Shown here: one piece after another, positions 23,422-49,538 of the stretch
Position numbering within the stretch: position 1 is the stretch's first letter
Layout of the letters: each line of letters starts with the position of its first letter
Notes under the pieces: generated by a model
What the model was told of the DNA's origin: nothing
The model's database searches: none
Seen by the model: only the letters and a program-made list of their open reading frames with translations
Source: Chloroflexota bacterium
Lineage (GTDB): Bacteria > Chloroflexota > Dehalococcoidia > Lucifugimonadales > G022566795
Assembly: GCA_022566795.1 (NCBI GenBank)
Contig: JADFIF010000003.1
Span: 1 to 50,130, forward strand
Length of the DNA stretch: 50,130 nucleotides
Direction of reading: 5' to 3'
Translations under genes and position numbers: made by a program

Positions 23422-24915
23422 TCACCATAGGCTTCGTCCGGAATGGGGTTTTGCAGGGGTCAGGTTCAAGGACTCGATAATCGTCGGGAAAAGGTCTACC
23501 GTCCGCACCGGCCCACTCGACGACAACGGACGGTTGCTCAGGATGGGCACATTCATGTGCTCGCTGCACAACGCGCCGTGCGACGACCGATGCTCAGGCC
23601 ATTCACGTCGCCCTCTCAGATCGTATCCTGGTCTGGCTGTTACCACAATGTCACCGGTCCGCTGACTCGTGAACAGTTGCCATATCTGCTCCAGGGCATC
23701 GGGAAACCGGGTATCCGCAGTCAACTCCAGCGCATCGGCCTCGTGTATCGCGGTGCGAGGAAGGCCAAGCTGCAAGGGGTCTGAGCCGTCGTAGCCATAG
23801 ATGTAGGATTCACAGTCCTTGCTCAGGAGAGCCGTCCCCGATCGCGACACGATCTTAATCGCTCCACCGCTGTGCCGGTAGGCGATCCACTCGATTTCGG
23901 TCCGCTGGCGAAGCGCCTCGAGCAATCGCCCGTGCTCGCCTTCCAGTTCGTCGCCGACCGACGGCCTTTCCCACTTGCCATCCGAGGATACGTAAACGTT
24001 GGCGAAGGAGTTACCGGAGATCGCGACGGCGGCGTCCGCAACACGCCGAAAAATGCTGGGGTGCTCGAAAACCCTGTAGCCGAGATGTGAGAGCAGTCGG
24101 CTCAGATCCAGGTGTTCGGCCGTCTCGGTGTGGCCGTGATCGCTTGAGAGCAGGAGGTGGGTCCTGTCCCAGACGCCGATGCGTCTCAGACGGTCGACCA
24201 GGGTGCCGACGGCAGCGTCGATTCGCCGATAGGCGTCGAGCGTCCGACGGTGTTCGGGGCCGTGGGCGTGTGACGCGGTATCGACGTCGAGCATTGGGAA
24301 AAAAATGAATCGGGGCCAGTTGTCATCCATCTTCCGGAGGGCACGCAGCAGGCTCCCCAGCACAAACTTGTCGATAAAATCCGCCCGCTTGAGGTAGTGG
24401 GAAAAGAACATGAAAGGTATCGAACTGCCATGGAAACGGCTGAACCCTGGAGCGAGTCCGCGGTGGATGTCGCTGCGTATAGCCAGCGAGCCGGGGCACA
24501 GCTCGAACATTGTTTCCAGCCCATTGGGCAGGTCGCCGTTGAACCGGAGGTGAGCCGGCCCAATGTAAGAACGGTGGCCTTTGACGACCCCGTTGTTGAA
24601 GGTGAAACGAGACTTTTCCACCCAGCGGATGCCCGGTATGTTGGCGGTCCCGGGATACTGGCCGGTAAGCATGGGCAGATACGCTACGTTCGTAACGCTC
24701 GGCAGAACTGTGACCCCTTCGTGATAGGAGCCTTCCGCGAGGAGGTGACGTGTAATGTTTGGCAGGTCACCCGATGCGCACAACGCCTTGAGGACGTCGG
24801 GTCTGAAACCATCCGCCAGTAAGAGAATGGCAAGATCGATGTCGCCGGTGCGCGTCGACACGGGTGACGGGGTTCCGGCCCCTGTGATGGCCGGCTCCCC
24901 TTGTCCAGGAATCAT
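23422..24915 (-). CDS. alkaline-phosphatase-superfamily protein (type I phosphodiesterase / nucleotide pyrophosphatase family)
   Basis: The translation has ..ILLLADGFRPDVL..VLPSVTNVAYLPMLTGQYPG..IPGIRW.. and ..LLLSSDHGHTE.. I prefer ATG 24915, which sits 8 nt after GGAGG and forms an ATGA overlap with the upstream ORF. The ORF-track start 24930 is the alternative. Confidence 0.85.
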   Translation of the reverse strand: MIPGQGEPAITGAGTPSPVSTRTGDIDLAILLLADGFRPDVLKALCASGDLPNITRHLLAEGSYHEGVTVLPSVTNVAYLPMLTGQYPGTANIPGIRWVEKSRFTFNNGVVKGHRSYIGPAHLRFNGDLPNGLETMFELCPGSLAIRSDIHRGLAPGFSRFHGSSIPFMFFSHYLKRADFIDKFVLGSLLRALRKMDDNWPRFIFFPMLDVDTASHAHGPEHRRTLDAYRRIDAAVGTLVDRLRRIGVWDRTHLLLSSDHGHTETAEHLDLSRLLSHLGYRVFEHPSIFRRVADAAVAISGNSFANVYVSSDGKWERPSVGDELEGEHGRLLEALRQRTEIEWIAYRHSGGAIKIVSRSGTALLSKDCESYIYGYDGSDPLQLGLPRTAIHEADALELTADTRFPDALEQIWQLFTSQRTGDIVVTARPGYDLRGRREWPEHRSSHGALCSEHMNVPILSNRPLSSSGPVRTVDLFPTIIESLNLTPAKPHSGRSLW

Positions 24916-25250
24916 ACGGTGCACCTCCATGCGACCAGCTCAACCGAGATTCCCCCTTGACCGCAGTACCCTATCTCGTTACGGCCGCAAGCGCCAGACC
25001 GTCCTGGGGCTGCGCTGAATAGCAGATTATCCACGCATGACGCATGCGTCGGTACCTGAATGGCTGAGGCGGTGCCATGGGACGGAGGCTGATCTGCTAT
25101 CCGAGGCTCGGCGTCCGGGTCGTCCGCCAGGACCACATCCGAGCCTTCCCGCCTTGAACGAAGGAAGGCTCGACCCTTCGACTTCAAGCCCGACAGCGAC
25201 GGTATCAGACCCTCACGAATTGGCTTCCAGGATGTGACGAGGAGGGCCAC
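24912..25250 (-). CDS. hypothetical ORF translationally coupled to the AlkP-family gene
   Basis: 112 aa with a GTG start. Its stop TGA overlaps ATG 24915 (ATGA), and its 3' end contains the SD for the next gene. The hydrophobic N-terminal segment would extend upstream only via a non-canonical start. The sequence is not convincingly protein-like. Confidence 0.3.
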   Translation of the reverse strand: MALLVTSWKPIREGLIPSLSGLKSKGRAFLRSRREGSDVVLADDPDAEPRIADQPPSHGTASAIQVPTHASCVDNLLFSAAPGRSGACGRNEIGYCGQGGISVELVAWRCTV

Positions 25251-25315
25251 GACCAGGAGGAACCAGAGGACTGAGGTGGCAAGTTTTAGATGTCAGGAAG
25301 TCTTGCATCTGGTCC

Positions 25316-26326
25316 CTATGGCGCCCTGGCATATATCTGAATCCGGTGCCGATTGCTCTCGACGACGTATAGCCTGCCCTGCTCGTCGAGCTTTACCGAG
25401 ATCGGGCCCCAGAAGTAGGGCTCGACCCGGGCGGACTCCTCGTGGGCGGTCGCGACCTCTTCGGTCATTTTGGGCATCAGCTCGGAGGCCTCTCGGGCCG
25501 CCTTCTCGTCCCAGTTCGCCTCGTAGAACTGCCGCGCCCATACGGACAGCGTCGCCTCCCCACGCAGCCTCTGCAAGAATCGGCCGTCCGCGTCCAGCAC
25601 CTGCACTCGCTCGTTACCCCAGTCAGCGACGTACACGTGTCCCGCCCTGTCCACGGCAACACTGGATGGGCGATGAAACTGTCCATCGTCGTGTCCCGGC
25701 TCCCCGAACGACGCCACGAAGGTCCCGTCCGGCAAGAACTTTTGGATTCTGTCGTTGCGCCAGTCGGCGACGTACACGTGCCCATGCGAGTCCAGGCCAA
25801 CTCCCCAGGGAAGGTTGAACTCTCCGGCGCCGCCACCCTCCGTCCCCCACGACAGCAGCCATGCGCCAGCCTTCGTGAACTTCTGCACGCGGCTGTTCCG
25901 GGAGTCCACCACGTACAGGTTGTCGTCCGCGTCGAAGGCGAGGCCCGAAGGCGCGTGGAGCTCTCCGACGCCGCTTCCGTGGGTCCCCCACATGGACAGG
26001 AAACGGCCCGAGCCGTCGAACACCGAGATCCGGTGGTTGTGCTCGTCGGCGAGGTAGAGGTTACCGTCCCGATCGAAGGCCAGCGCGGTGGGCCAAACGA
26101 ACTGGCCGTCCCCAGAGCCATAAGACCCGAAGTCGCCATAGTATTCGCTCTGGAGGTCGCAGATGCCGACCCGGATGCCGTAGGTCTGCAGGGGGTTGGT
26201 CCTGCTGAGGACGTACATGCGGCCGTCGCTGCGGATAGCGACGTCGACGGGGTTGCTGAAACCCCGTCCCTCCATGGCGACGATGCCGATCGTATGGCTG
26301 TACCTAAGAGCGAAGGCTGAAGGCAT
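25316..26326 (-). CDS. NHL-repeat six-bladed beta-propeller protein, paralogue 1
   Basis: ATG 26326 gives MPSAFALRYS.. The translation carries repeated ..F..P.G(V/L)A.D..G..YV(A/V)D..N.R(I/V)Q(K)F.. blades. It is clearly paralogous to 41611..42615, for example sharing FDADDNLYVVDS.N.RVQKFTK. Confidence 0.88.
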   Translation of the reverse strand: MPSAFALRYSHTIGIVAMEGRGFSNPVDVAIRSDGRMYVLSRTNPLQTYGIRVGICDLQSEYYGDFGSYGSGDGQFVWPTALAFDRDGNLYLADEHNHRISVFDGSGRFLSMWGTHGSGVGELHAPSGLAFDADDNLYVVDSRNSRVQKFTKAGAWLLSWGTEGGGAGEFNLPWGVGLDSHGHVYVADWRNDRIQKFLPDGTFVASFGEPGHDDGQFHRPSSVAVDRAGHVYVADWGNERVQVLDADGRFLQRLRGEATLSVWARQFYEANWDEKAAREASELMPKMTEEVATAHEESARVEPYFWGPISVKLDEQGRLYVVESNRHRIQIYARAP

Positions 26327-26525
26327 GGTCAATTCTTGTCCCCACTGACGAGCCGCAGGGCCTAATGTGTCCAACACGCGACTGTGCCGCTTGTAGGACG
26401 CGCCGCCCCGGTGAGTAACTTACCGCGACGCTTTCGCCATTGCAACTCATCTTGGAAAATCGCGTTGCGGAGCGATCGGCTGCCTCGGTAAGATGCATCA
26501 GCCCAATCGGGTCGGGGAGGAAGCC

Positions 26526-27428
26526 ATGCGAGTGGGATTCATCGGGATAGGCAATATCGGAAAACCCATGGCCGAGCAGATTATCAGGGCAGGACATACG
26601 CTGGTTGTCCACGATTTGAGGAGGGACGCGGCCACGTCCCTGGTCGCGGAGGGCGCGATCTGGGCAGGGTCGCCGGCCGAGGTCGCGACCGGATGCGATG
26701 TGGTCTGCACCTGCCTGCCCGGGCCCAAGGAGGTGGAGCCGGTCGTACTTGGCGAAGGCGGAATCGCGGCGGGTATGGTGCCTGGGTCCGTCTACGTCGA
26801 TCACACCACCAACGCTCCGTCTCTCGTCCGGCGGCTCCGTGACCTGCTGGCGACGAAGGGCGTGGACACGCTCGACGCCCCCGTCAGCGGAGGCATGGAG
26901 GGCGCTCGGACCAGGGACCTGGTCATGCTCGTCGGAGGGGATGCGACAGTCGTTGAGAAGGTCAGACCGGTCCTCGACTCGATGGCGAAGACCGTAATGC
27001 ACGTCGGCGACGTGGGCGCGGGATGCGTCTGCAAGCTTGCGCACAACTGCGCGGGGTTCTCCATCGACCTGGCCATGGTCGAGTGCATGACGCTCGCCGT
27101 CAAGGCCGGTGTCGACCCGGCTATCCTCGTGAACGTGTTTCAGAGGTGCGCCATCGGCAGGAGCTTCGATCTGCACGTCCGCTTGCCGGCGACCCTCTTT
27201 CAGGGCGACTTCGAGCCCCGGTTCGCGTTGAAGGTCGCGAACAAGGACATGACCCTGGCGACCGAGCTGGCGCAGGCGCTTGGGGTCCCGATGAAGCTGG
27301 CCGAGGCGTCCGCCGAGCAGATGTCGGAAGCGATGTCCCGTGGACTGGGGGATCGAGACAGCTCCGTGTTCCTGACTCTGCAAGAAGAGCGCGCCGGAGC
27401 GCAGATCAGAACCGGAAGTCAGGGCTAG
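26526..27428 (+). CDS. NAD(P)-dependent oxidoreductase, 3-hydroxyisobutyrate dehydrogenase (HIBADH) family
   Basis: ATG 26526 follows GGGGAGG. The translation has MRVGFIGIGNIGKPMA..DAPVSGG..GAGCVCKLAHN.. Confidence 0.88.
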   Translation: MRVGFIGIGNIGKPMAEQIIRAGHTLVVHDLRRDAATSLVAEGAIWAGSPAEVATGCDVVCTCLPGPKEVEPVVLGEGGIAAGMVPGSVYVDHTTNAPSLVRRLRDLLATKGVDTLDAPVSGGMEGARTRDLVMLVGGDATVVEKVRPVLDSMAKTVMHVGDVGAGCVCKLAHNCAGFSIDLAMVECMTLAVKAGVDPAILVNVFQRCAIGRSFDLHVRLPATLFQGDFEPRFALKVANKDMTLATELAQALGVPMKLAEASAEQMSEAMSRGLGDRDSSVFLTLQEERAGAQIRTGSQG

Positions 27429-27434
27429 ACCGCC

Positions 27435-28850
27435 CTATGCCAGCTGAAACTCTCTGGTGGACGCGATGAGGCGCAGCATCTCCGCGACGCGTTGCTGAGG
27501 CCGTTCGTCGGACGCCACGTCGGCGAGGTCGAGGTCTCCCTCGGCGGCGGCATGGTCGGCGAGGGCTTCGCGGGTGTCCCTCGCAACGGACGATAGACCG
27601 AGCAGATCGAGGCAGCCGTCCACAAGCTCGCGCGGGGTCATGCGCCCCTTCCGCTCGGACGCGAGTCTTTCGACCAACGCCCGAACGCCCGGTTTCGCCA
27701 GATCGCCCAGGTACCTGGCGGCGAAGTTGACCCGCTCCACCAATGCGCCGCTATCTATCCACTCTCGGCCCTCGTGCCAGCCCTCGACGCTGGGAGGATT
27801 CAGGAGCTCCTGCCCCATGTATCCCGTCACCAGCGCCGCCTCCCACGCTTCGAGAGTCGGCCAGGCCAGCGCATCGGCCGCTCTGAGTGTGCCCGCCACC
27901 ATCTCCGCCGGGCTCTTCACGTGGGCGAAGCGCACCTGCTCGGACCTGAAGAGCTCCGAGAGGAACATGGTGCTCAGAACCGCGCGAATCTCACGGCCGG
28001 AGTCGAAGTAAGTGCGCTGCATCGCATCGACCAGCGCCCGCCCCTCATCGTCGATCTCGTCGGCGACAAAGAACTGGAATAGCCTGGAACACACGAAAGC
28101 CGCCGTCGCCGGGTTGCGTACGATGATGTCCACAACGTCATCGCCCTCGAACCGGCCGGTCTGCCCGAGAACGGTTTTCTCGCCGCCGTCGTGGTCGTCG
28201 CGCCTATACTCGTACTGCCAAGCCACCCGGCCGTAGGGCCAGATAGACGCCTTGTGGGACCTGAGAGCCATGAACTCGGCGTTTTGTATCGTCCCGCCCG
28301 TGAAGGCCCTGGCGCACTCCTTGATATCCTCTTCGGTATAGTTTCCGATCCCCATCGAGAACAGCTCGAGCAGCTCCCGGCCGAAGTTCTCGTTGATGGA
28401 ATCCGTGTGGTTGTCGTTGTTGTCGAGCCAGAAGATCATCGCGGGGTCCTTCGAGACCGCGACCAACAGCGTGCGAAAGTCGCCCAGGCCGCAGTGGCGG
28501 AACATGTCGATCTGACTCATTAGAGTTTTGACCTGATTGACCTTCCGCTCGCCGGTGGCGAACAGGCCGTGCCAGAACAGCGCCATCTTTTCCACCAGCG
28601 GCGCGTCCGTCGAGACCATCCGATACAGCCAGTTGGCCACCGCGCTATCGACGAGCCGCAACTCCGACTGGTCTACGTGGTAGCGGCGGATGATATCTTC
28701 GGGCAGCGACCGCGGAGCCTCCGGGCTCAGCAACGCCTCGACGGTCGCCTCATACCCGTCTGCAACGCATACGTCGATCTCCTCGGGCGTGGCGCCGAAC
28801 CCCGCCCGGCGCATCAGGTGGGCCATCAGAGCTCGGTCTGTCACTGTCAT
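27435..28850 (-). CDS. DUF1800 domain-containing protein, paralogue 1
   Basis: ATG 28850 lies 6 nt after AAAGGA and gives MTVTDRALMAHLMRRAGFGATPEE.. The protein aligns along its full length with the 43950..45359 product (..PAMIFWLDNN.NH..NEN.GRELLELFS.G.GNYTE.D..PPSVEGWH.G.EWI.SG.LV.RVNF..). Confidence 0.85.
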   Translation of the reverse strand: MTVTDRALMAHLMRRAGFGATPEEIDVCVADGYEATVEALLSPEAPRSLPEDIIRRYHVDQSELRLVDSAVANWLYRMVSTDAPLVEKMALFWHGLFATGERKVNQVKTLMSQIDMFRHCGLGDFRTLLVAVSKDPAMIFWLDNNDNHTDSINENFGRELLELFSMGIGNYTEEDIKECARAFTGGTIQNAEFMALRSHKASIWPYGRVAWQYEYRRDDHDGGEKTVLGQTGRFEGDDVVDIIVRNPATAAFVCSRLFQFFVADEIDDEGRALVDAMQRTYFDSGREIRAVLSTMFLSELFRSEQVRFAHVKSPAEMVAGTLRAADALAWPTLEAWEAALVTGYMGQELLNPPSVEGWHEGREWIDSGALVERVNFAARYLGDLAKPGVRALVERLASERKGRMTPRELVDGCLDLLGLSSVARDTREALADHAAAEGDLDLADVASDERPQQRVAEMLRLIASTREFQLA

Positions 28851-28900
28851 CGGGTATCCTTTGATCATCGCGTTCAGGGCACTCTGAGCCTACGATGCAC

Positions 28901-41049: not shown

Positions 41050-41301
41050 CTACGAGCCTTCGTGCACCTCGGTGATCTCGTCCGCGAGAAGGCCGTGGGC
41101 TTCACGGTGCGCCGCTTCGCCCGCTTCTCTGCTTGGAGCCTCAAACAGACAGAAGACGGATCCTTCGGCCTCGTTGTACCAATATCTCAGGAACTCGACT
41201 CCGTGCTTCCCTTGCACCTCCAGGTCCCTCGCGTGGGCACCTGCGACAGCTTCTGCGGTCAGACCTTCTACGTTCTTGTGGACGTCCATGTAGAGCGGCA
41301 T
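41050..41301 (-). CDS. DUF4242 family protein (SCO4226-like, putative nickel/metal-binding)
   Basis: ATG 41301 lies ~9 nt after AAGGAGG. The translation is MPLYMDVHKNVEGLTAEAVAGAHARDLEVQGKHGVEFLRYWYNEAEGSVFCLFEAPSREAGEAAHREAHGLLADEITEVHEG. The upstream 46 codons of the ORF-track entry are unlikely to be coding. Confidence 0.75.
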   Translation of the reverse strand: MPLYMDVHKNVEGLTAEAVAGAHARDLEVQGKHGVEFLRYWYNEAEGSVFCLFEAPSREAGEAAHREAHGLLADEITEVHEGS

Positions 41302-41480
41302 TTCGTCATGCCTCCTTTCGTTGATTCCTTGGCTCCGCGCGATAGGTGTGTAGCATACCACCAGGGTCTCACTTCTTGGTGCCGGGTGAAGAGCGAGTCG
41401 TCGCGGACCCTGTAACACAAAGAGGGCGGATGCTGCCATTCGCCCTCGAAATCGCTCTTAGCACCGACCTCGAACCCCCG

Positions 41481-41611
41481 GCCTACCCTCGCGGGTCCAG
41501 GGCTGGCCCTGGCGGGTCCGCTTCAACCCGCCGGCGACCTGCCGCGACACTCGCATGGCAAAGGCAAAACCGCGCCCAGCCTACCCTCGCGGGTCCAGGG
41601 CTGGCCCTGGC
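41481..41611. repeat. two perfect 33-bp direct repeats, each containing a hairpin
   Basis: GCCTACCCTCGCGGGTCCAGGGCTGGCCCTGGC occurs at 41481-41513 and again at 41579-41611. Each copy contains the palindrome CCAGGG-CTGG-CCCTGG. The second copy abuts the stop codon of the NHL gene at 41611-41613. Confidence 0.8.
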
Positions 41612-42615
41612 TAGAGGTTAAACTGCGGCTCCAGGTAGTTCTTCTCTTTGGCGTAGACCTGCAGACGCCCTCGGGTGCTTTCGGTGATGATGATCCGGTC
41701 CTCGTCGTCGATGGCTATGCCTACGGGGCGCTCGAACAGTCCGAGCGGAGTCCGGTCCTTGACACGCCGGTACGCCTTGACGACGTCGGGATTGGACTCG
41801 ACGACCTCCTTCGCCCACTTCGAGAACTCGGTGGCATCGCCGTACAGCGCCGCCAGGGCGTTGCCCTCGGAGTCGTAGATCTGTACCTTCTTGTTGCCCC
41901 AGTCGACGACGTAGACGTCGCCCTCGCTGTCCACCGCGACGTCCGATGGCCGTTTGAGGTCGCCGCCCTGACCCGGCTCGCCGCCAAAAGTGAGCAGCGG
42001 CTTGCCGTCGCCGGAGAACTTCTGCACACGGTCGTTGCCCCAGTCGGCCACGTAGACGTCGCCGTCCTTGTCGACGGTTACGCCCCAAGGACGGTCGAGC
42101 TGCCCCTCACCGCTTCCAGAGCCGCCCCAGCTGGTTATGAAGTTGCCGTCTTTGGTGAACTTCTGCACCCGATCGTTCAGGCTGTCGACGACATAGAGAT
42201 TGTCGTCGGCGTCGAACGCGATGCCCGAGGGGCCGCTGAGCTCGCCTTCTTTGGAGCCCGCCTCTCCCCACTGGCCGAGGCGCTCGCCGTCGGCGCTGTA
42301 CCAGGCGATAAAGTTTCCGTACTCATCGGAGCAGTAGAGCTTGTCGTCCTTCGAGACCGCCAGACCCACCGGCCACGTAAACTCCTGCCGGCCGAAGTCG
42401 CCGATGAGCTCGTCGTCCATCGTTATCTTGCCGATGCGTTTGTTCTGCGCAACGACGCCCCCGGCACCCTCCTGCCCTCGGCTGAGCACGTACATCGAGC
42501 CATCGCGGGCAATGGCGACCGCGGTAGGCTGAGTGAAGCCGTTGCCCGCCGCCGCGTTGCGGCCTATCGCCTTCACGAAGTTCCAGGTGCGCCCGGCAAC
42601 CGTCGTAGTTTCCAT
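41611..42615 (-). CDS. NHL-repeat six-bladed beta-propeller protein, paralogue 2
   Basis: 334 aa. ATG lies 7 nt after AAAGG. It has the same blade pattern and the same pre-terminal non-propeller insertion as 25316..26326. Confidence 0.88.
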   Translation of the reverse strand: METTTVAGRTWNFVKAIGRNAAAGNGFTQPTAVAIARDGSMYVLSRGQEGAGGVVAQNKRIGKITMDDELIGDFGRQEFTWPVGLAVSKDDKLYCSDEYGNFIAWYSADGERLGQWGEAGSKEGELSGPSGIAFDADDNLYVVDSLNDRVQKFTKDGNFITSWGGSGSGEGQLDRPWGVTVDKDGDVYVADWGNDRVQKFSGDGKPLLTFGGEPGQGGDLKRPSDVAVDSEGDVYVVDWGNKKVQIYDSEGNALAALYGDATEFSKWAKEVVESNPDVVKAYRRVKDRTPLGLFERPVGIAIDDEDRIIITESTRGRLQVYAKEKNYLEPQFNL

Positions 42616-42731
42616 CGCAGTACCTTTCTGTCCTAGATTTCACTGGCCGGGTCCGATGGCGCCGCAAGCCGAATGCGCCGCCGAACCGCGGTCGTCCAGC
42701 GTCCCCCTGTGCGTCGACCAGACACCCGGCC

Positions 42732-43880
42732 TTATGCGCCGTTCGTCTTGATGAACTGGGGCGCCTCGAATTGGCCGTTCACGATGGGCTTGGCGTCCAA
42801 CTTCATCCAGTCGTTGAGGATGGTGGAGTAGACGCCTCGGAAGTCCTGGTTCGGGACCAAGTCGCCCTGCTCCAACGCCTCGGCGCGCGTCTCCGGGTAC
42901 TCGCTGTACCAGCCGCCCTTGACTTTCGGTCCGATGGCGAAGCAGACGCCCGCCGCGCCGTGGTCGGTGCCCGAGCCGTTGTCTCGGACCCGCCGGCCGA
43001 ACTCTGAGAAGAGGAACATGACGACGTTCTCGTCGGCATCTTGCTCGCGAAGGTCGTCCCAGAAGTCGGTGATGGCCTCGGACACGTCGGTCCATAGCTG
43101 GGCGTGGGTTGTTGCCTGGGCGGCGTGAGTGTCGAAGCTGCCGTGCTGCGTGTAGAAGATTCGCGTGCCCAAATCCGCTGTGTGGATCGTCGCGACGTCG
43201 CGCAGGCTCCTGGCGATAGGGCTGGCGCCGTACTCGACGCTCGAGGAGTACGTGTCGGGCGCTGTCTTCAGGATGTCGGCGCCTTTGAGCGCGTCCAACC
43301 CAGTCTGGCCGAGGTACTCCATCACCGGCCCGGTGCCGAGGGCGGGGCCATACATGTTGGCGAAGCGCTCGAGCATCCGGGTGCGCTGCGCTTCCTCCTC
43401 GATGCTGGTCAGCAGGCCGTAGGTGGAGAGGTCTGCCACCGAGGCCACGGACACCCCTCGCGCCACCAGCGCCCGAGGTAGCCCCTGGCCGATGTTGACC
43501 GCCGTGATGGGGTTCTCACTCTCCGGGTCGATGTCGCGGATGGCGCGTGCCAGCCAGCCCTCGGTCCCGACCGTGTCCGGCTCGCAGGTGTGCCAGATGT
43601 CCATCGACCGGAAGTGCGACCGCGGCGAATTTGCGTAGCCCACGCCGTGGATGATGGCCATGCCGCCCTGCTCGAACTTGTCCTTCAGAGGGGCCATGGC
43701 CGGGTGCAGGCCCAGCTCGTCGTTGAGCTTCAGGACCCGGTCCTGAGGAATCTGAAGCGACGGCCGGGAGTCGTAGTAGTTGCCGTCCGTGTACGGGATC
43801 ACCGTGTTGAAGTAGTCGTTGCCACCGGTCAGCTGCAACACGACCAGCACCGGGGGTTTGCTATTGCCATTGGTAGTCAT
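42732..43880 (-). CDS. DUF1501 domain-containing protein (alkaline-phosphatase/sulfatase-superfamily fold), no Tat/signal leader
   Basis: I prefer ATG 43880, which lies 9 nt after AAGGAG. The ORF-track TTG 43898 contains that SD. The translation has ..VLVVLQLTGGNDYFNTVIPY.., ..HGSFDTHAAQ.. and ..GSGTDHGAAG.. Confidence 0.85.
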   Translation of the reverse strand: MTTNGNSKPPVLVVLQLTGGNDYFNTVIPYTDGNYYDSRPSLQIPQDRVLKLNDELGLHPAMAPLKDKFEQGGMAIIHGVGYANSPRSHFRSMDIWHTCEPDTVGTEGWLARAIRDIDPESENPITAVNIGQGLPRALVARGVSVASVADLSTYGLLTSIEEEAQRTRMLERFANMYGPALGTGPVMEYLGQTGLDALKGADILKTAPDTYSSSVEYGASPIARSLRDVATIHTADLGTRIFYTQHGSFDTHAAQATTHAQLWTDVSEAITDFWDDLREQDADENVVMFLFSEFGRRVRDNGSGTDHGAAGVCFAIGPKVKGGWYSEYPETRAEALEQGDLVPNQDFRGVYSTILNDWMKLDAKPIVNGQFEAPQFIKTNGA

Positions 43881-43949
43881 ATTCGAGCGCTCCTTCAAGA
43901 TTTGCTTTTGGCAAGATTTGCCTGCGGCAAGACTTTGGTCTGGCGGCTC

Positions 43950-45359
43950 TTAGCCGAACTGATACTCTCGCGTCGCGGCGATCAGGGCCAGCATGTCCCC
44001 AACGCGCCGGGACGAGCGGGCGTAGTCCTCTTCGGTGGCCCAGGAGATGGAGCCCTCGCTCTCCGCGTGGGAGAGCAGTTCCCTACGCGTGTGCTCGCCC
44101 ATCTCGATCGGCCCCATCAGATCGAGACACTGGTCGACGAGTGCCTCCGCCGTCATGGCCGAGCCGTTGGATTCGGCGACCCTCTTGATTATGCTCTTGA
44201 CGCCGGGCAGCTCGGTGTTGCTGACGCGGTCAGCCACGAAGTTCACGCGCTTCACCAGCGAGCCGCTGTTGATCCACTCCTTGCCGGTATGCCAGCCCTC
44301 GACGCTGGGCGGGTCGAGGATCGCCTGGCCCATGTACCCGGGCTCCTTGCCCATGCCCTCCAGCCGCGGGTCCGGGCCGGCCAGATCGCCGGTGAGCCCC
44401 AGCGTCCCGACGACGACCTCCACCGGGCTCTTGACTTTCTGGTAGGTGGACTCCTTGAAGAAGTCGGAGTTGAACATGGTGCGTAGGACCGGCTTGATCT
44501 CGAGCCCCGAGCTGACGAAGGTCTCGCGCAGAGTCTCTACCGCTTCAGGGTCCCTGGGCTCCTCGATGTTCCACGCCGGGACCTGCGGCTCGTCGGCGAC
44601 GAAGAAGTTGTACAGGTGCCGCGCGATGAACTTGCTGCACGCGGGCTGCTGGACGACGATGTCTATGATGTCCTCGCCGTTGAAGTTTCCGGTGTGCCCC
44701 AGGAAGGTCTTCTCGGTGAAGTCATGGTCCTCCGGCCTGTACTCGAAGGTCCACGGGAAGCGCCCGTAGGGGAAGCGCGGCATCTTGGCGCCGATGGTCC
44801 AGCCGGTGAACGCGCGGGAGCACTCGAAGACGTCCTTCTCGGTATAGTTCCCGACTCCCAGGGAGAAGAGCTCGAGAAGCTCTCGGCCCCAGTTCTCGTT
44901 GGGGGCGTTCCGGTGGTTCTCGTTGTTGTCCAGCCAGAAGATCATGGCCGGATTCTTGGCAATCTCGACGAGCAGGTTCCGGTAGTTGCCCATCCCAATG
45001 TCTCGGAATATCTGGATCTGCTCCAGGAGGTGATTGCAGTTGTCCACCTTGGCGTTGCCGGTGGCGAATACGTGATGCCAGAAGAGCGCCAGCTTCTCTT
45101 CGAGGGGTCGCTCCGTGTTCACCATCTGGTAGAGCCAGTTGGCCTGTCCAGGGTCTGCGGCCCCACCCGGTACCTCGGTGATGGGATGGTAGCGCCAGAG
45201 CAAGAACTCGTCGACCGGCGGTGCCGTCGGATTGATAAGCTGCTCCACCGTCTCCTCGTAGCCCTGCTCGGCCAATCTCTCGACCTCGTCTCGAGTCGCA
45301 CCGAACCCGGCGCGTCTCATGAGGTGGGACATCAGGGCAATGTCTTCTTTGTTCGGCAT
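43950..45359 (-). CDS. DUF1800 domain-containing protein, paralogue 2
   Basis: 469 aa. ATG lies 5 nt after AGGAGG and gives MPNKEDIALMSHLMRRAGFGATRDE.. The protein is collinear with 27435..28850. Confidence 0.85.
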   Translation of the reverse strand: MPNKEDIALMSHLMRRAGFGATRDEVERLAEQGYEETVEQLINPTAPPVDEFLLWRYHPITEVPGGAADPGQANWLYQMVNTERPLEEKLALFWHHVFATGNAKVDNCNHLLEQIQIFRDIGMGNYRNLLVEIAKNPAMIFWLDNNENHRNAPNENWGRELLELFSLGVGNYTEKDVFECSRAFTGWTIGAKMPRFPYGRFPWTFEYRPEDHDFTEKTFLGHTGNFNGEDIIDIVVQQPACSKFIARHLYNFFVADEPQVPAWNIEEPRDPEAVETLRETFVSSGLEIKPVLRTMFNSDFFKESTYQKVKSPVEVVVGTLGLTGDLAGPDPRLEGMGKEPGYMGQAILDPPSVEGWHTGKEWINSGSLVKRVNFVADRVSNTELPGVKSIIKRVAESNGSAMTAEALVDQCLDLMGPIEMGEHTRRELLSHAESEGSISWATEEDYARSSRRVGDMLALIAATREYQFG

Positions 45360-45437
45360 GCCTACCTCCTGGCTTCTTGTTCTTCGGCGCTACGAGATTG
45401 CTGAAAAAACCCTTTGGACCATCCCCTTCGACGATGC

Positions 45438-45914
45438 TCAGGGCAGGCTTTGTGGCGCCTGCTGCTGACCGCCCTCGCGCGCCTGACACTGTGGACAGAC
45501 GCCGTAGTAGTCGGTCCGCCGATTCACCAGCCGGTATCCGGTCGCCGCTGAGATGGCCTCCAGAGGCTCGCTCGGCTCGACCATCTCCAGGTCCTCGATC
45601 TTCTCGCACTCGACGCAGATCAGGTGCGGATGGGCCTGGGGAATTCGCCCATCGTACCGATTGGCGGCGCCGCTGAACTCGATCTCGAGGACCTGCCCCG
45701 TTTCCTTCAGCAGCTCGATTGTGTTGTAGATGGTGGCCAGGCTGGTGCTGGGGAAGTATCGCCTGACCTCTTCGTGAATCTCGCCCACGCTGGGGTGCCG
45801 GTCGCTGGCGACCAGGACCTCCAAGAGCTTGGCGCGGCGCGGCGTCAGCGCGACGCCCTTCTCCGCGAGCGAGGCACGCATCTCCGTCAATCTCTCTTGC
45901 AGATGGTCTGCCAA
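45438..45914 (-). CDS. Fur family transcriptional regulator (Fur/PerR/Zur/Nur-like)
   Basis: 158 aa. It has a winged-helix N domain (LTPRRAKLLEVLVASDRHPSVGEIHEEV..SLATIYNTIELL) and a C domain with HPHLICVECEKIED and CPQC, a Cys4 structural site. The TTG start is uncertain. Confidence 0.85.
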   Translation of the reverse strand: MADHLQERLTEMRASLAEKGVALTPRRAKLLEVLVASDRHPSVGEIHEEVRRYFPSTSLATIYNTIELLKETGQVLEIEFSGAANRYDGRIPQAHPHLICVECEKIEDLEMVEPSEPLEAISAATGYRLVNRRTDYYGVCPQCQAREGGQQQAPQSLP

Positions 45915-45969
45915 CCAGTGGCCCCCAGGAAATGGTAATTCGGGAGTTCGCCTGTGAAAGATTTAACAA

Positions 45970-45984
45970 ATTAGAATGGTTCTA
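45970..45984. promoter_or_regulatory. PerR/Fur-box-like palindromic operator candidate
   Basis: TTAGAAtggTTCTAA is a perfect 6-3-6 inverted repeat and a near 7-1-7. By my count it matches 11 of 14 positions of the Bacillus PerR-box consensus TTATAATnATTATAA. It lies 56 nt upstream of the Fur-family start in an AT-richer patch. Confidence 0.5.
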
Positions 45985-46334
45985 AAATCTCTCACAGAGG
46001 TACGTTAAACGAGTTGGGTCAGAGTTGTCAAGTGCCTGCTAAAAACGGGGTTCGGGGGGAAGTAGTGGGTAGCAGGCGGCTCCCCTAATGTCATGTCGAG
46101 CGGAATCGAGACATCTCAGGCGCACTACACAGCGGAGCCAGCGTTGACTCGCTCAGAAGCCTCTTAGACCCCTCGACTTCGCTCGGGGTGACATGGTGCC
46201 GGCCGGGCGCGACGTGATGCGTCAACGCGGGGGTCGCACCTCGGTGAAAGCTCTGGGTTGAACTGGGGCTCCGCCGATGCGAGAATACGCGCCGTGCGAC
46301 TCCGAGATGGCAACTACAGAGGCGAGGTACTGCG

Positions 46335-49300
46335 ATGGCCGTGACTCAGAATATGCTTAACGCGCTCGAGTGGCGGTGCATCGGGCCTCCGCGCGGCGGA
46401 CGGGTCGTCGCGGTTGCCGGAGACCCGGTCAACCCGGCCGTCTTCTACTTCGGGGCATGCGCCGGTGGGGTCTGGAAGACCGACGACGCGGGGACCTACT
46501 GGCAGAACGTCTCCGACGGCTTTTTCAAGACCGCCTCTGTAGGCGCCATCGAGGTCGCCCCCTCAGACCCGAACGTGATCTACGCCGGGATGGGCGAGGC
46601 CTGCATCCGGCTGGACGTCAGCCACGGCGACGGGGTGTACAGGTCGACCGACGCCGGCAAGACCTGGTCGCATCTGGGGCTCCAGGATACGCGGCATATC
46701 GCCAGGGTCCGGGTCCATCCTCGCAACCCGGATATCGTCTACGTCGCGGCCCTGGGTCACGCCTTCGGACCCAGCGAGCAGCGTGGTATTTTTCGCTCCA
46801 CCGATGGCGGCAAGACGTGGGAGCATGTGCTGTCCAAGGGTCAGGACGCCGGCGCCGCCGACCTGTCGATGGACCCCAACAATCCCCGCGTGCTTTTCGC
46901 GGCCATCTGGGAGGCCCGCCGCACCTTCTGGAGCATGTCCAGCGGCGGCTCCGCCAGCGGGCTCTACCGCTCGACCGACGGCGGCGACACCTGGACCGAT
47001 ATTACCGACAACCCCGGACTGCCCAAGGGGCTCAAGGGCCGCATCGGCGTGGCGGTCTCGCCGGCCAAGTCGGGCAGGGTGTGGGCCACGGTCGAGGCCG
47101 AGGACTGCGGGCTGTACCGCTCGGACGACGGCGGCGACACCTGGGAGCTGGTCAGCGACGACCGGGACCTGCAGGGCCGCCCCTGGTACTACCAGCACGT
47201 CTTCGCCGACCCTCAGGACCCCGACACCGTGTGGATCCTGAACTACCAGTGCTACAAGTCGATAGACGGCGGCAAGAACTTCACGCAGGTGTCGACGCCT
47301 CACGGCGACAATCACGATCTGTGGATCGACCCGCGCAATCCCCAGCGAATGATCGAGGGCAACGATGGCGGGGCCTGCGTCTCCTTTAATGGCGGCGACA
47401 CCTGGTCGACCATTTACAATCAGCTTACGTCCCAGTTCTACCACGTCGCGACGGACACCCAGTTTCCCTACCGGGTGTACGGGACCCAGCAGGACAACTC
47501 CGCCATAAGCGTGCCGTCCCGGACCCACAAGGGCGCCATCCCCTGGGGCGACTGCTACACCGTCGGCAGCTCCGAGAGCGGCTACATCGCGGTCCATCCG
47601 GAGGACCCCAACATCGTCTTCTCGGGCGCCATCGGGAGCTCCCCCGGAGGAGGCGGCAACCTGCTGCGCTACGATCACAGGACCGGCCAGGTCCGCATCG
47701 TGACCGTGTGGCCCGAGATCAACATCGGCTACGGCGCCAGCGAGATGAAGTACCGGTTCCAGTGGACCTACCCCATCCAGTTTTCGCCCCACGACCCGCG
47801 AGTGCTGTACGTGGCCGGGAACATGGCGTTCCGGTCGGAAGACGAGGGCAGCAGCTGGACGCCGATCAGTCCCGATCTGACCCGCAACGACGTGTCGAAG
47901 CTGGGGCCTTCGGGCGGCCCGGTGACGCTGGATACCTCCGGGGCCGAGACGTACGCGACGATCTTCGCCTTCGTCGAGTCGCCGCACGAGGCCGGCGTCT
48001 TCTGGGCCGGCTCGGACGACGGCCTGGTGCACATCTCCCGCGACGGCGGAGCCAACTGGACGAACGTCACGCCGCCCGCGCTGCCGGAGTGGTCGCTCAT
48101 CAGCATGATCGAGGTGTCGCCGCACGACGCGGCCACGGCGTACATGGCCGCGACCCGGTACAAGGCGGACGACAACCGCCCGATGCTCCTGAAGACGAAC
48201 GACTACGGCGCCAGCTGGACGGAGATCAACGCAGGAATCCCCGCCGATGACTTCACGCGGGTAATTCGGGCAGACCCCGGCCGCCGCGGGCTCCTCTACG
48301 CGGGCACCGAGACGGGCGCCTACGTATCGTTCGACGACGGCGGCTCGTGGCAGCCCATGCAGGCGTCTCCTTCGACAGGCTCAGGACGGGGTCTGCCGGT
48401 GGCGCCGGTCTACGATCTGCAGATCAAGGACGACGACCTCATCGCGGCGACTCACGGGAGGTCGTTCTGGATTCTCGACGACGTGACGCAGCTCCATCAG
48501 ATCAGCGACGACCTCCAGGGCCAGCGGTTCAAGCTCCTCAAGCCTCGGACCACCTACCGGCTGGCGTCGCCGTTCAGAGGCCGAAAGCCGTCCGAGGGCA
48601 AGAACTACCAGCTCTCGCTGGGGGCGGCGGTCACGTTCACGGAGTCCAAGGGCGCTCATGGAGAGACCGTTCGAAAGTTCCTGGACGCGGGACAGAACCC
48701 TCCCGACGGGGTCGTGGTCAGCTACTGGCTCGGACCGGATCACGGGGACGACCTTAGCTTGAGCTTTCTGGATGCAGCGGAAAATCTCATCGTCAGCTAC
48801 TCGAGCAAGGAGCCCGAGAAGGGCTCGGACGAAAAGAAGCCGGAGCCCCGCCCGCCGGCGGAGCCAGGCATGAACCGATTCGTCTGGAACATGCGCTACC
48901 CCGACGCCCAGAAGGTGCCGGACGACAAGCTGATGGAGGACCGCGAGTTCAAGCCCCTGGCGCCGCCCGGCACCTATCAGGTACGGCTCACGCTGGGCGG
49001 CGACTCGCAGAGAGAGTTTCAGACGCAGACATTCGAGATCGTCAAGGACCCGCGGGTCGCGGCGACACAGGACGACTTCGACGCCCAGTTCGAGCTGCTG
49101 ACGAGGATCCGCGACAAGCTGTCCGCCACTCACGAGGCGATCGTGCGCCTGCGGAGTGTCCGCCAGCAGGTGGACGAGTGGGTGGCGCGGGCTGAGACTC
49201 ACTCGGCCAGCCAGATCGTCTCAGACACGGCGGCGGCACTGAAGGAGAAGCTGACGGAGATCGAGAACGAGCTGATTCAGGTCGAGTACAAGGGAGCGCG

Positions 49301-49538
49301 AGACCGGCTGAACCTGCCCTCCAAGCTCAACTCCAGGCTGGCGGAGATCACGGCGGTGGCCGCCGCCGCCGACTTCGCGCCTCCGAAGCAGGCGTACGAG
49401 GTGTACGACGCCGTCGTCGCGCGGATCGACCCGCATCTCCAACGCCTTCAGACGGTGATCGACGACGACGTCTCGGCCTTCGAGAACCTCATTCACGAGC
49501 TGGGCATCCCGGCCATAGTCCCCAAGTCGACGGCGTGA
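46335..49538 (+). CDS. BNR/Asp-box repeat, VPS10/sortilin-like double beta-propeller protein (GH74-like glycosyl-hydrolase-related)
   Basis: 1067 aa with at least 9 Asp-box-like motifs: STDAGKTW, STDGGKTW, STDGGDTW, SDDGGDTW, SIDGGKNF, SEDEGSSW, SRDGGANW, TNDYGASW, FDDGGSW. There is no obvious signal peptide. Confidence 0.85.
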   Translation: MAVTQNMLNALEWRCIGPPRGGRVVAVAGDPVNPAVFYFGACAGGVWKTDDAGTYWQNVSDGFFKTASVGAIEVAPSDPNVIYAGMGEACIRLDVSHGDGVYRSTDAGKTWSHLGLQDTRHIARVRVHPRNPDIVYVAALGHAFGPSEQRGIFRSTDGGKTWEHVLSKGQDAGAADLSMDPNNPRVLFAAIWEARRTFWSMSSGGSASGLYRSTDGGDTWTDITDNPGLPKGLKGRIGVAVSPAKSGRVWATVEAEDCGLYRSDDGGDTWELVSDDRDLQGRPWYYQHVFADPQDPDTVWILNYQCYKSIDGGKNFTQVSTPHGDNHDLWIDPRNPQRMIEGNDGGACVSFNGGDTWSTIYNQLTSQFYHVATDTQFPYRVYGTQQDNSAISVPSRTHKGAIPWGDCYTVGSSESGYIAVHPEDPNIVFSGAIGSSPGGGGNLLRYDHRTGQVRIVTVWPEINIGYGASEMKYRFQWTYPIQFSPHDPRVLYVAGNMAFRSEDEGSSWTPISPDLTRNDVSKLGPSGGPVTLDTSGAETYATIFAFVESPHEAGVFWAGSDDGLVHISRDGGANWTNVTPPALPEWSLISMIEVSPHDAATAYMAATRYKADDNRPMLLKTNDYGASWTEINAGIPADDFTRVIRADPGRRGLLYAGTETGAYVSFDDGGSWQPMQASPSTGSGRGLPVAPVYDLQIKDDDLIAATHGRSFWILDDVTQLHQISDDLQGQRFKLLKPRTTYRLASPFRGRKPSEGKNYQLSLGAAVTFTESKGAHGETVRKFLDAGQNPPDGVVVSYWLGPDHGDDLSLSFLDAAENLIVSYSSKEPEKGSDEKKPEPRPPAEPGMNRFVWNMRYPDAQKVPDDKLMEDREFKPLAPPGTYQVRLTLGGDSQREFQTQTFEIVKDPRVAATQDDFDAQFELLTRIRDKLSATHEAIVRLRSVRQQVDEWVARAETHSASQIVSDTAAALKEKLTEIENELIQVEYKGARDRLNLPSKLNSRLAEITAVAAAADFAPPKQAYEVYDAVVARIDPHLQRLQTVIDDDVSAFENLIHELGIPAIVPKSTA

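Follow-up and report, generated by a model that had tools for sequence, protein, structure and literature searches.

A conserved perR-DUF1800-DUF1501-NHL gene cluster with a putative PerR operator in SAR202-type Dehalococcoidia

Results

In the window, which is the whole analysed stretch of 50,130 nt from a Chloroflexota bacterium, the minus strand carries five co-directional genes between positions 41050 and 45914, in the order regulator, DUF1800, DUF1501, NHL and DUF4242. The original prediction, made from the sequence letters, had named these families, their order and their spacing; all five family calls were upheld by Pfam profile matches, and the intergenic gaps, computed from starts backed by ribosome-binding sites and orthologues, measured 78, 69, 116 and 309 nt, in agreement with the sizes given there. 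Gaps of 69-116 nt could accommodate internal promoters. The features of the locus are the following:

46026-46031, minus strand: -35 element TTGACA of the inferred operon promoter; TTGAC invariant in 21 aligned orthologous upstream regions
46002-46007, minus strand: -10 element TAACGT (TAnnnT), at a spacing of 18 nt from the -35 element; its T, A and T identical in all 21 loci
45971-45985, no strand assigned: putative PerR-box-like 7-1-7 operator TTAGAACCATTCTAA, a conserved match to TTAGAAnnnTTCTAA
45438-45914, minus strand: PerR-type Fur-family repressor, 158 aa, TTG start (PF01475, E = 7.6e-26)
43950-45359, minus strand: DUF1800 protein, 469 aa, leaderless (PF08811, E = 5.6e-102)
42732-43880, minus strand: DUF1501 protein, 382 aa, leaderless, putative catalytic subunit (PF07394, E = 7.3e-24)
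41611-42615, minus strand: NHL beta-propeller, 334 aa, leaderless (PF01436, E = 6.4e-38, four significant repeats)
41477-41513 and 41575-41611, minus strand: two 37-nt direct repeats in the gap after the NHL gene, 97% identical; none expected by chance
41050-41301, minus strand: DUF4242/SCO4226-like gene, 83 aa (PF14026, E = 4e-23; PDB 4oi3, 1.2e-13)

In regard to the regulator, its best PDB matches were B. subtilis PerR 2fe3 (3.2e-25) and S. pyogenes PerR. His40, Asn64, Asp88, His95, His97 and Asp108 correspond to H37, N61, D85, H91, H93 and D104 of PerR, and Cys100, Cys103, Cys140 and Cys143 to its two CxxC pairs. Hallmarks of PerR proteins are Asp104, an Asn within helix H4 and two pairs of CxxC cysteines (PMC8638967), and the signature residues and both CxxC pairs were unchanged across 18 orthologues; the JGI label on the orthologues is 'Fur family peroxide stress response transcriptional regulator'. 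Judging by these residues, the regulator is a canonical PerR-type repressor and not a generic Fur, and the earlier wording "metal- or peroxide-sensing" narrows to PerR-type. Peroxide responsiveness is nevertheless taken as putative, since the score against the NCBIfam PerR equivalogs lies under the cut-off (105.8 bits vs 180) and the box differs from that of B. subtilis at one position per half-site.

The 21 orthologous upstream regions are otherwise just 58% identical, and the sole invariant blocks of their alignment are TTGAC, TA..T and TT.GAA...TTC.A. From this conservation and the spacer of 17-18 nt (TTGACA to TAnnnT) across the conserved loci, we infer that TTGACA/TAnnnT is the sigma-70-like promoter of the operon; a consensus promoter scan did not pick it up because its -10 element is weak. 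The 7-1-7 operator TTAGAAnnnTTCTAA (TTAGAAT-n-ATTCTAA) lies about 15-20 nt downstream of the conserved promoter in 21/21 aligned loci, in exact or near-exact copies; its distance to the regulator start further downstream ranged over 52-143 nt in 23 loci measured. One exact match per locus was found in 11 of the 15 genome loci and in L081-L088. In the window, TTAGAACCATTCTAA is the single match at up to two mismatches, with 0.23 expected, a uniqueness which is not significant alone and gains its significance from the conservation across genomes. A palindrome had been noticed upstream of the regulator, one base off its true position (45971-45985), and the proposal that it and the regulator control the gene string is supported by the conservation of the box in other genomes.

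The confident AF2 model of the DUF1800 protein (pLDDT 82.6, pTM 0.86) is mainly alpha-helical, and Foldseek returned no match for it in the PDB (best E = 1.0, query-normalised TM-score <=0.18 among the 50 matches listed). The residues that are invariant throughout its family are charged or polar (E155, N156, R159, E160, D176, H212, D213).

For the DUF1501 protein (AF2 model with pLDDT 65.7, pTM 0.77), Foldseek matched sulfatases, LtaS and YejM at E ~1e-6, with probability 1.0 and TM ~0.4, which points to an alkaline-phosphatase/sulfatase fold. The residues D22, S88, H89, D250, H252, D306 and H307 do not vary between SAR202 and the proteins of Thermus, Azospirillum and Vibrio, the core D / S-H / DxH / DH is common to the whole family, and the motifs GGNDxxN, FDTH and GTDHG, already read from the sequence by eye, are unchanged in 52 homologues. 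Based on this pattern and on the model, the protein is very probably a metalloenzyme. Confidence in this model is only moderate, with pLDDT <50 in the loops that would form the active site, and the mapping of residues to metal ligands is therefore a putative one that follows the superfamily pattern. The type I sulfatase motif C/S-x-P-x-R is missing, and no solved structure was matched at the sequence level.

The beta-1 strand of the DUF1501 protein begins about 10 residues past the Met, leaving no leader. The proteins of Thermus, Azospirillum and Vibrio have RR (Tat) leaders of 30-50 residues, and of the further full-length DUF1501 representatives listed, at 35-45% identity, nearly all measure 400-440 aa and have an N-terminal extension of 35-55 residues. 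No real Tat leader occurred in the 80 related loci, and the suggestion that leaderless DUF1800 and DUF1501 proteins are cytoplasmic held.

The closest solved relatives of the NHL protein are TRIM-NHL proteins (Thin 8e-72, TRIM2, TRIM71), PknD and Brat, while its matches to enzymes are far weaker (PAL 8e-9, Vgb lyase 1.6e-5); it also matches Pfam SGL (SMP-30/gluconolactonase family) at 1.8e-12. In its sequence it thus resembles binding-type propellers, and its length and its homology to the six-bladed TRIM-NHL and PknD suggest six blades.

An intact DUF1800-DUF1501-NHL triad was present at 72 of the 80 Dehalococcoidia loci, which bears out the NHL gene as an extension of the pair; three of the exceptions are contig ends. 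Regulator, DUF1800, DUF1501 and NHL follow each other in this order and direction in the 15 closest genome loci, in L081-L088 and in L092-L094, and the order survives differing flanking genes; in L007 the NHL gene is displaced downstream by about 2.5 kb. Among regulator orthologues at 62-64% identity, the triad follows in 3/3 sampled, and in L083 the regulator gene and DUF1800 overlap by 11 nt. Pairwise identities of the three triad proteins correlate (r = 0.91-0.93), which is partly owed to their common species phylogeny, and DUF1501 is the best conserved of them (mean pairwise identity 0.65, vs 0.61 and 0.48). As far as gene order and sequence conservation tell, the conserved unit is perR-DUF1800-DUF1501-NHL, four genes, in SAR202-type Dehalococcoidia (Chloroflexota), and within it DUF1800-DUF1501-NHL is a self-contained, leaderless triad, inherited, duplicated and co-evolving together.

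The triad is heavily duplicated, and only its most conserved copy has PerR and the box. In 61 paralogue loci there is no regulator and no operator box upstream of DUF1800, which qualifies the original prediction. Neighbours of the paralogues include luciferase-like monooxygenases, CoA-transferase III, enoyl-CoA hydratase, SDR, GMC and Dpp-type ABC importers. A second, partial set, overlooked in the original prediction, is present in the same window, where DUF1800 and NHL paralogues without DUF1501 adjoin an NPP-type phosphodiesterase.

The DUF4242 gene, previously counted as a module member, was found only in this contig and in one close relative (L081/L082), the closest one, whose copy a frameshift breaks in two; it was absent at all 80 genome loci. 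Judged by this distribution, it is a lineage-specific passenger outside the conserved operon, and the nickel/metal hint falls away with it. The two direct repeats exist as described, with a length of 37 nt instead of 33 bp; they are missing from all 91 loci compared, have no Rfam match, and the fold z-score is -1.5. On the same comparative grounds, they are not part of the conserved module.

Discussion

As a best guess, to which we would assign a probability of about 0.55, the locus is a PerR-controlled four-gene operon encoding a peroxide-derepressed, cytoplasmic complex that processes phospho- or sulfo-esters. PerR with Fe(II) or Mn(II) would occupy the operator just past the transcription start and shut off its own operon. 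H2O2 would oxidise the His residues that bind Fe, by analogy with B. subtilis PerR, and with the oxidised repressor off the operator, the three proteins would be produced in the cytoplasm. The DUF1501 protein would be the catalytic subunit, a metalloenzyme of the alkaline-phosphatase/sulfatase superfamily with Ser88 as the nucleophile and the metal(s) held by Asp22, Asp250/His252 and Asp306/His307, and its reaction would be cleavage or transfer of a phosphate- or sulfate-type ester. The DUF1800 protein would act as its obligatory helical partner, while the propeller, binding-type and fastest evolving, may recruit or select the substrate. Triad paralogues without PerR would perform the same chemistry on other substrates within the SAR202 catabolic expansion, the PerR-linked copy being the presumed ancestral one.

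A less probable, still sizeable alternative is that the triad represents a further catabolic set for dissolved organic matter without any oxidative-stress role, and that PerR is a global regulator parked upstream, autoregulated, with its real targets (catalase, peroxiredoxin, Dps, rubrerythrin) elsewhere. Autoregulation of perR is normal in B. subtilis, 61 paralogue triads do without PerR or box, and their neighbours are typical SAR202 catabolic families. However, the linkage between PerR and the triad outlasts rearrangement of all surroundings, the overlap in L083 shows how close the regulator and DUF1800 genes can lie, and the four genes are preceded by only one visible promoter/operator footprint. 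Moreover, the PerR-linked copy is the most conserved one (DUF1501 identity 77-99% among the homologues listed), which would be unusual for a peripheral catabolic enzyme.

PerR-type proteins can also report Fe or Mn status, their DNA binding being lost when these metals are scarce, and together with the Fur-family membership of the regulator, the SCO4226-like nickel-binding homologue downstream and the probable metalloenzyme nature of DUF1501, this could suggest a metal-starvation module (Fur/Zur/Nur-type) with a sensor of Fe, Zn or Ni, DUF4242 as a nickel accessory and DUF1501 as a metal-sparing or metal-handling paralogue. We consider this improbable. PerR boxes start with TT, Fur boxes with TG and Zur boxes with TC, and the operator here starts with TT; DUF4242 is missing elsewhere and decaying in the closest relative. 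PerR/Irr are set apart from Fur, Zur, Mur and Nur by Asp/Glu at 104 and Asn/Arg in the recognition helix (PMC8638967), and the regulator has Asp, not Glu, and Asn, not Arg, being PerR-type in 18/18 orthologues.

Least credible is the absence of any enzyme complex, with independent proteins, or with the NHL protein (lyase/lactonase-type) or DUF1800 as the catalyst and DUF1501 as an accessory, as NHL-type propellers do include enzymes (PAL and Vgb match weakly, and SGL gives a Pfam hit), DUF1800 owns an invariant charged set and the second locus in the window lacks DUF1501, yet DUF1501 shows the highest conservation within the triad and keeps a full superfamily-type catalytic set, and the strongest propeller matches are non-enzymatic binding domains.

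With the peroxide-derepressed ester-processing operon as the preferred reading, an old "unknown gene pair" becomes testable within the oxidative-stress response of SAR202-type ocean and sponge Chloroflexi.

The DUF1800-DUF1501 (COG5267-COG4102) pair known from Proteobacteria, Thermus and others shares the Pfam families, adjacency, order and invariant DUF1501 residues with the locus studied here. The typical pair, however, is exported, with an RR Tat leader on DUF1501 and a lipobox-like N-terminus on the Vibrio DUF1800, whereas all three proteins here are leaderless; it is also longer (395-436 aa for DUF1501 and 544-549 aa for DUF1800, vs 382 and 469 aa), and the three typical pairs inspected have no adjoining NHL or Fur-family gene, while here NHL is fixed and one copy comes with PerR. 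Members of the alkaline-phosphatase superfamily (type I sulfatases, LtaS, phosphoethanolamine transferases, YejM, NPP) have the D/nucleophile/DxH/DH arrangement and a similar fold in common with DUF1501, but the latter reaches a TM of only ~0.4, lacks the formylglycine motif and needs, or always accompanies, DUF1800.

The regulator resembles B. subtilis PerR in the Fur fold, the residues H37/D85/H91/H93/D104, Asn61, the Cys4 zinc site and a 7-1-7 inverted repeat starting with TT at its own promoter, although it is only ~35% identical to it and under the NCBIfam PerR cut-offs. The B. subtilis box consensus is TTATAATnATTATAA, from which the operator here, TTAGAATnATTCTAA, differs at one position per half-site. 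The genes beside the regulator encode three function-unassigned proteins, and not catalase, AhpC, Dps or haem genes as with B. subtilis PerR.

In Planctomycetes and Verrucomicrobia, PSCyt/PSD1 and DUF1501 modules also consist of DUF1501 with a partner protein and have many paralogues per genome (Kamneva et al. 2012, PMC3542564), like the SAR202 triad. Their partners have cytochrome-c-motif and carbohydrate-binding domains, and the proteins of these modules have signal or Tat peptides, whereas the triad is without cytochrome domains, cytoplasmic and has NHL as a third partner; a weak, sub-threshold PSD1 match of the DUF1800 protein (E = 0.0046) hints at a relationship between the two partner families. 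In SAR202, COG3391 (propeller), COG4102 (DUF1501) and COG5267 (DUF1800) are among the 50 most abundant COGs and were reported to be correlated (Saw et al. 2020, PMC6946804), in agreement with the many triads found here. This co-abundance had escaped the original prediction. Saw et al. listed the three as 'uncharacterized conserved proteins', and their paper contains no account of the operon, of the lack of leaders, of the copy linked to PerR or of its operator (PMC6946804).

Organization and conservation of the operon

The original prediction described five co-directional minus-strand genes, with a Fur-family regulator heading a DUF1800-DUF1501-NHL propeller-DUF4242 string. The genes and their family assignments were recovered, all five Pfam matches lying well over threshold, and the intergenic gaps measure 78, 69, 116 and 309 nt.

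45438-45914, minus strand: Fur-family regulator gene (perR), TTG start at the position of the closest relative's ATG
43950-45359, minus strand: DUF1800 gene, Pfam match 342.5 bits
42732-43880, minus strand: DUF1501 gene, ATG with GAAGGAG ahead, Pfam match 85.1 bits
41611-42615, minus strand: NHL propeller gene, PF01436 repeats
41050-41301, minus strand: DUF4242/SCO4226-like gene, Pfam match 81.8 bits

The GGNDxxN, FDTH and GTDHG motifs of DUF1501 were found as described and are invariant in 52 homologues. The two repeats of the last gap exist as well, at a length of 37 nt (97% identical) instead of the proposed 33 bp, and so does the palindrome upstream of the regulator, whose coordinates shift slightly to 45971-45985 (sequence TTAGAACCATTCTAA). 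As genes, motifs, repeats and palindrome were all found, the observation is therefore confirmed with these small corrections.

In regard to the conservation of this organization, DUF1501 relatives were scanned using one genome per species, which gave at least 593 matches, and the best 80 of them, every one from Dehalococcoidia or Chloroflexota MAGs, were taken. DUF1800, DUF1501 and NHL (hereafter the triad) are adjacent, co-directional and in the same order in 72 of the 80 loci. In the eight exceptions, a contig end cuts the locus (three), DUF1501 stands alone (three) or the genes are rearranged (two). Of the 80 loci, only those 15 with a DUF1501 at least 79% identical to that of the window have the regulator. 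It was also found in further metagenomic loci, deep-ocean contigs included, where priA and rplS are neighbours of the four-gene unit and the genes of the regulator and DUF1800 overlap. When regulator orthologues were sampled at 62-64% identity, the triad followed in three out of three, in three different genomic surroundings.

The inclusion of DUF4242 in the module did not hold. The gene is missing in all 80 related loci, and besides the window it was seen only in L081 and L082, two of the further loci, where it is frameshifted; its protein reaches 73.8 bits against the NCBIfam SCO4226 equivalog (cut-off 125). DUF4242 is a passenger in the variable NHL-priA gap and not a module member. Since the regulator and the triad are kept together and DUF4242 is not, the conserved unit is perR-DUF1800-DUF1501-NHL.

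In the closest relative (DUF1501 96% identical), the frameshift-split DUF4242 gene occupies L081 12586-12835 and L082 12589-12838, and a nearby 7-bladed lactonase gene is in two pieces. Such broken genes suggest that the variable NHL-priA region is decaying.

The PerR-type regulator and its operator

The regulator matches PF01475 at E = 7.6e-26 and 91 bits (cut-off 23). Its closest solved structures are the PerR proteins of B. subtilis (2fe3, 3.2e-25) and S. pyogenes, with all Fur, Zur and Nur structures ranking behind. Three features mark canonical PerR proteins: Asp, not Glu, where B. subtilis has Asp104, Asn, not Arg, in helix H4 of DNA recognition, and a pair of CxxC motifs (PMC8638967, which cites Parent 2013 and Caux-Thang 2015). 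In the window protein, the regulatory metal site H37/D85/H91/H93/D104 is present as H40, D88, H95, H97 and D108, with Asp at the 104 position, while N64 aligns with PerR N61 in helix H4 (Asn, not Arg), and the two CxxC motifs of the structural Zn site are C100/C103 and C140/C143. An alignment of the window protein with 17 orthologues from other genomes revealed that His37, Asn61, Asp85, His91, His93, Asp104 and the four Cys are all invariant, and the JGI annotation of orthologues reads 'Fur family peroxide stress response transcriptional regulator'. By its sequence signatures, the window regulator belongs among the PerR-type members of the Fur family. Of the NCBIfam models, PerR (Clostridia type) fits best, with 105.8 bits, below the curated equivalog threshold of 180, and the remaining Fur, Zur and Irr models all score lower. 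Because all NCBIfam equivalogs, PerR included, score under cut-off, the regulator represents a distant lineage.

The operator-like box, TTAGAAnnnTTCTAA, was found exactly once per locus. It invariably precedes the regulator gene, and in the 23 loci where the distance to the gene start was measured it amounts to 52-143 nt. Of the 15 closest species genomes, 11 have the exact box, as do the further loci L081-L088, and it is near-exact elsewhere; the additional loci L092-L094 carry it too. Most often the box reads TTAGAATCATTCTAA, a perfect 7-1-7 inverted repeat. The PerR box of B. subtilis is TTATAATnATTATAA, from which the window box differs at one position per half-site, keeping the TT start that accompanies Asn61. 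In 61 paralogue loci, i.e. triad copies devoid of the regulator gene, the 400 nt ahead of DUF1800 hold no box at up to two mismatches.

The upstream regions of the regulator, aligned from 21 loci, share an overall identity of just 58%. Nothing in the alignment is invariant except three blocks: TTGAC(A), then TAnnnT at a distance of about 17-18 nt, then the box after roughly another 15-20 nt. This conserved arrangement reads as the phylogenetic footprint of a putative sigma-70-type promoter whose start site is closely followed by the operator. Comparative alignment revealed this promoter, in contrast to a consensus scan, which found no promoter and no terminators over shuffled expectation. A TTTCACA motif was also observed about 15-20 nt downstream of the box in many, not all, orthologous leaders (window 45945-45955, L001, L010, L081, L083, L093, L094 and others).

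Folds and conserved residues of the triad proteins

Searches of DUF1800 and DUF1501 against PDB sequences, with single sequences and with a profile, gave nothing meaningful. For DUF1501, an AF2 model of moderate quality (pLDDT 65.7, pTM 0.77) gave 90 Foldseek matches in the PDB at E <=0.001, with sulfatases and LtaS at the top (probability 1.0, E ~1e-6, TM only ~0.4) and including carrageenan sulfatases and YejM at E ~1e-6. According to this model, DUF1501 has the alpha/beta fold of the alkaline-phosphatase/sulfatase superfamily. A putative catalytic set is retained, with D22, S88-H89, D250-x-H252 and D306-H307 invariant from SAR202 to Proteobacteria and Thermus, and these residues appear to follow the superfamily order of metal ligands and nucleophile. 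The formylglycine motif of type I sulfatases, C/S-x-P-x-R, is not present in DUF1501, where the context of the putative nucleophile is N-S-P-R-S-H-F.

The DUF1800 model is confident and mostly helical (pLDDT 82.6, pTM 0.86), and its best PDB match in Foldseek has E = 1.0, with a query-normalised TM of at most 0.18 among the 50 matches listed. Residues invariant across the family comprise Arg, Glu, Asn, Asp, Lys and one His, a set that does not amount to a haem or Cys/His metal signature. DUF1800 also weakly matches PSD1 (E = 0.0046, under the Pfam threshold), the partner domain of DUF1501 in Planctomycetes (PMC3542564). A likeness of its 'FWHH' motif to the distal 'AWH' motif of peroxidases was considered and dropped, because Foldseek showed no fold of the peroxidase kind and the His varies within the family.

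The NHL protein has four significant PF01436 repeats and matches six-bladed TRIM-NHL domains at 8e-72 to 1e-50, its own blade number being taken from homology. It is nearest to propellers of the binding type (TRIM-NHL, PknD), with the enzymatic PAL and Vgb lyase much further off.

Duplication and leaderless state of the triad

The pairwise identities of the three triad proteins correlate at r = 0.91-0.93 over 72 triads, with mean identity highest for DUF1501 (0.65) and lowest for NHL (0.48). The triad is duplicated as a unit, several genomes within the best 80 loci having two or more. Individual loci present further variants: two complete tandem triads with an extra NHL gene (L026 5538-14702), two NHL genes in succession (L037 8357-10483) and a second triad 5 kb downstream (L058 13454-15130). 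In 13 paralogue triads, a conserved gene of ~107 aa lies on the same strand directly downstream of NHL, at ~9.2-10.3 kb in each locus (L044, L047, L049, L055, L059, L061, L063, L066, L073-L076 and L079). It has no Pfam match, is missing from the window, and may provide one triad subfamily with a fourth component. In search of a substrate hint, the PerR-less triads were inspected for conserved neighbours, and none was found. Dpp/Opp-type ABC importer genes flank 13 of ~65 loci and were dropped as evidence, because they belong to one of the most abundant SAR202 families and their rate is, by a rough estimate, close to background.

The window also holds a second, partial set:

27435-28868, minus strand: second DUF1800, a paralogue at 48% identity
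26493-27428, plus strand: NAD_binding_2 gene, 3-hydroxyisobutyrate-dehydrogenase-like, between the second DUF1800 and the second NHL
25316-26377, minus strand: second NHL, a paralogue at 43% identity
23422-24930, minus strand: leaderless PF01663 NPP-type phosphodiesterase, 385 nt downstream of the second NHL

DUF1501 is missing from this set (23422-28868), so another enzyme of the alkaline-phosphatase superfamily may stand in. A metagenome scan for relatives of the phosphodiesterase beside the second NHL gave just two 2-kb contigs.

The triad is leaderless. On the window's DUF1501 both an RR motif and a hydrophobic stretch are missing, as had been predicted, and none of the 80 loci has a Tat leader on this protein; RR motifs upstream of some paralogues were examined as candidate leaders and all fall ahead of the conserved start codon. 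DUF1501 proteins of Thermus, Azospirillum and Vibrio have classical RR leaders and are without an NHL neighbour. In an exhaustive search of 1.84 billion representatives, in which DUF1501 has 12,730 representatives at 50% identity, the leaderless clade forms a single full-length 50% cluster. The next full-length relatives (35-45% identity) are, nearly all among those listed, 400-440 aa long with an N-terminal extension of 35-55 residues. Three representative proteins at 39-43% identity (P0365, P0396, P0405) are short, 375-399 aa, and aligned from their first residues, and therefore other leaderless lineages may exist outside the SAR202 clade. Solitary leaderless DUF1501 genes (63-74% identity) occur in L021, L043 and L046, where neither DUF1800 nor NHL was detected in the 7-kb flanks.

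Local repeats and neighbouring genes

The repeats of the NHL-DUF4242 gap lie 98 nt apart:

41477-41513: 37-nt direct repeat
41575-41611: 37-nt direct repeat, beginning at the NHL stop codon

Each contains two short GC hairpins, CCAGGG/CCCTGG and ACCC-GCGA-GGGT. Further copies were found neither in the window nor in 91 loci, there is no Rfam match, and the fold z of -1.5 is not significant; the repeats are treated as a local feature of this lineage-specific gap. The DUF1800-DUF1501 gap holds a 16-nt tandem direct repeat at 43896-43927 (CAAGATTTGCTTTTGG / CAAGATTTGCCTGCGG) and a small hairpin. Divergent from perR, a 1067-aa BNR/Sortilin-Vps10-type protein is encoded at 46335-49538; it scores under the cut-off of the F510_1955 glycosylhydrolase model and recurs in L081/L082 and in part in L093; orthologous loci that are more distant lack it.

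Proposed model and comparison with known systems

Our preferred reading is a PerR-controlled operon built around a DUF1501-centred enzyme, to which, as a composite, we give a probability of roughly 55%. Metallated PerR would sit on the operator and repress the operon, and H2O2, through Fe-catalysed His oxidation, or loss of Fe or Mn, would release it. DUF1501 could be a metalloenzyme with a Ser nucleophile, either an esterase or a transferase, whose substrate is an ester of the phosphate or sulfate type, with DUF1800 as its obligate partner and the NHL propeller as a fast-evolving recognition subunit. The regulatory and architectural part probably holds, and the enzymatic part is less likely than not.

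The main rival, in which PerR acts globally and just happens to sit ahead of a catabolic triad of the ordinary kind, appears unlikely to us. A metal-starvation module is still more improbable, as both the PerR signatures and the lack of DUF4242 conservation speak against it.

Going beyond the PerR-controlled operon itself, one could speculate, at rather long odds, that the PerR-linked triad serves SAR202 as a cytoplasmic peroxide-stress system so far unrecognised. The three proteins would form a machine, with an alkaline-phosphatase-fold enzyme and a helical partner of PDB-absent fold, that repairs or removes an oxidation-derived phospho- or sulfo-ester compound, or remodels a cofactor/metal pool, and that was ancestral to the large SAR202 expansion of triads for organic-matter catabolism. 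If true, the widespread DUF1800/DUF1501 pair would gain its first physiological role, and the triad would bear on the reason for the light sensitivity of cultured SAR202 strains. Such strains are light-sensitive (PMC10444878), which makes the hypothesis testable.

In the dark ocean, SAR202 ranks among the most abundant clades of bacteria, and DUF1800/DUF1501 is a very large family pair without a function that is massively duplicated there; related modules are also massively duplicated in Planctomycetes and Verrucomicrobia (PMC3542564). COG3391, COG4102 and COG5267 are among the 50 most abundant SAR202 COGs, where they were found to be correlated and left as 'uncharacterized conserved proteins' (Saw et al. 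2020, PMC6946804). The triad COGs are not listed in the supplement of the SAR202 cultivation paper. A literature search by DUF and COG names found no functional study of DUF1800/DUF1501; it gave papers on chitin-synthase co-transfer, the Entotheonella vesicle proteome, a PVC module and the SAR202 COG correlation, and none on the operon, the leaderless clade or the PerR link. The co-abundance part of the pattern is already published, and these latter three were not found described. The locus provides a defined regulatory input, which had been missing; it has a canonical PerR, a footprinted promoter and operator, and a fixed cytoplasmic three-protein set. The confident DUF1800 model without a PDB neighbour is a good target for structure determination. 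Its interest rests on strong conservation in a globally abundant clade, on a regulatory handle for a long-standing function-less pair, and on the PDB-absent fold of the partner.

Compared with the DUF1800/DUF1501 pair as known from Azospirillum, Vibrio and Thermus, the window's genes are alike in that both Pfam families exceed the gathering threshold and are adjacent, with DUF1800 first. However, described members are typically exported, with a Tat leader on DUF1501, whereas those of the window are without export signals, and the unit adds two fixed components, NHL and PerR. In regard to PerR-autoregulated stress operons, the window operon would work alike, but its cargo is unlike any known member of a PerR regulon.
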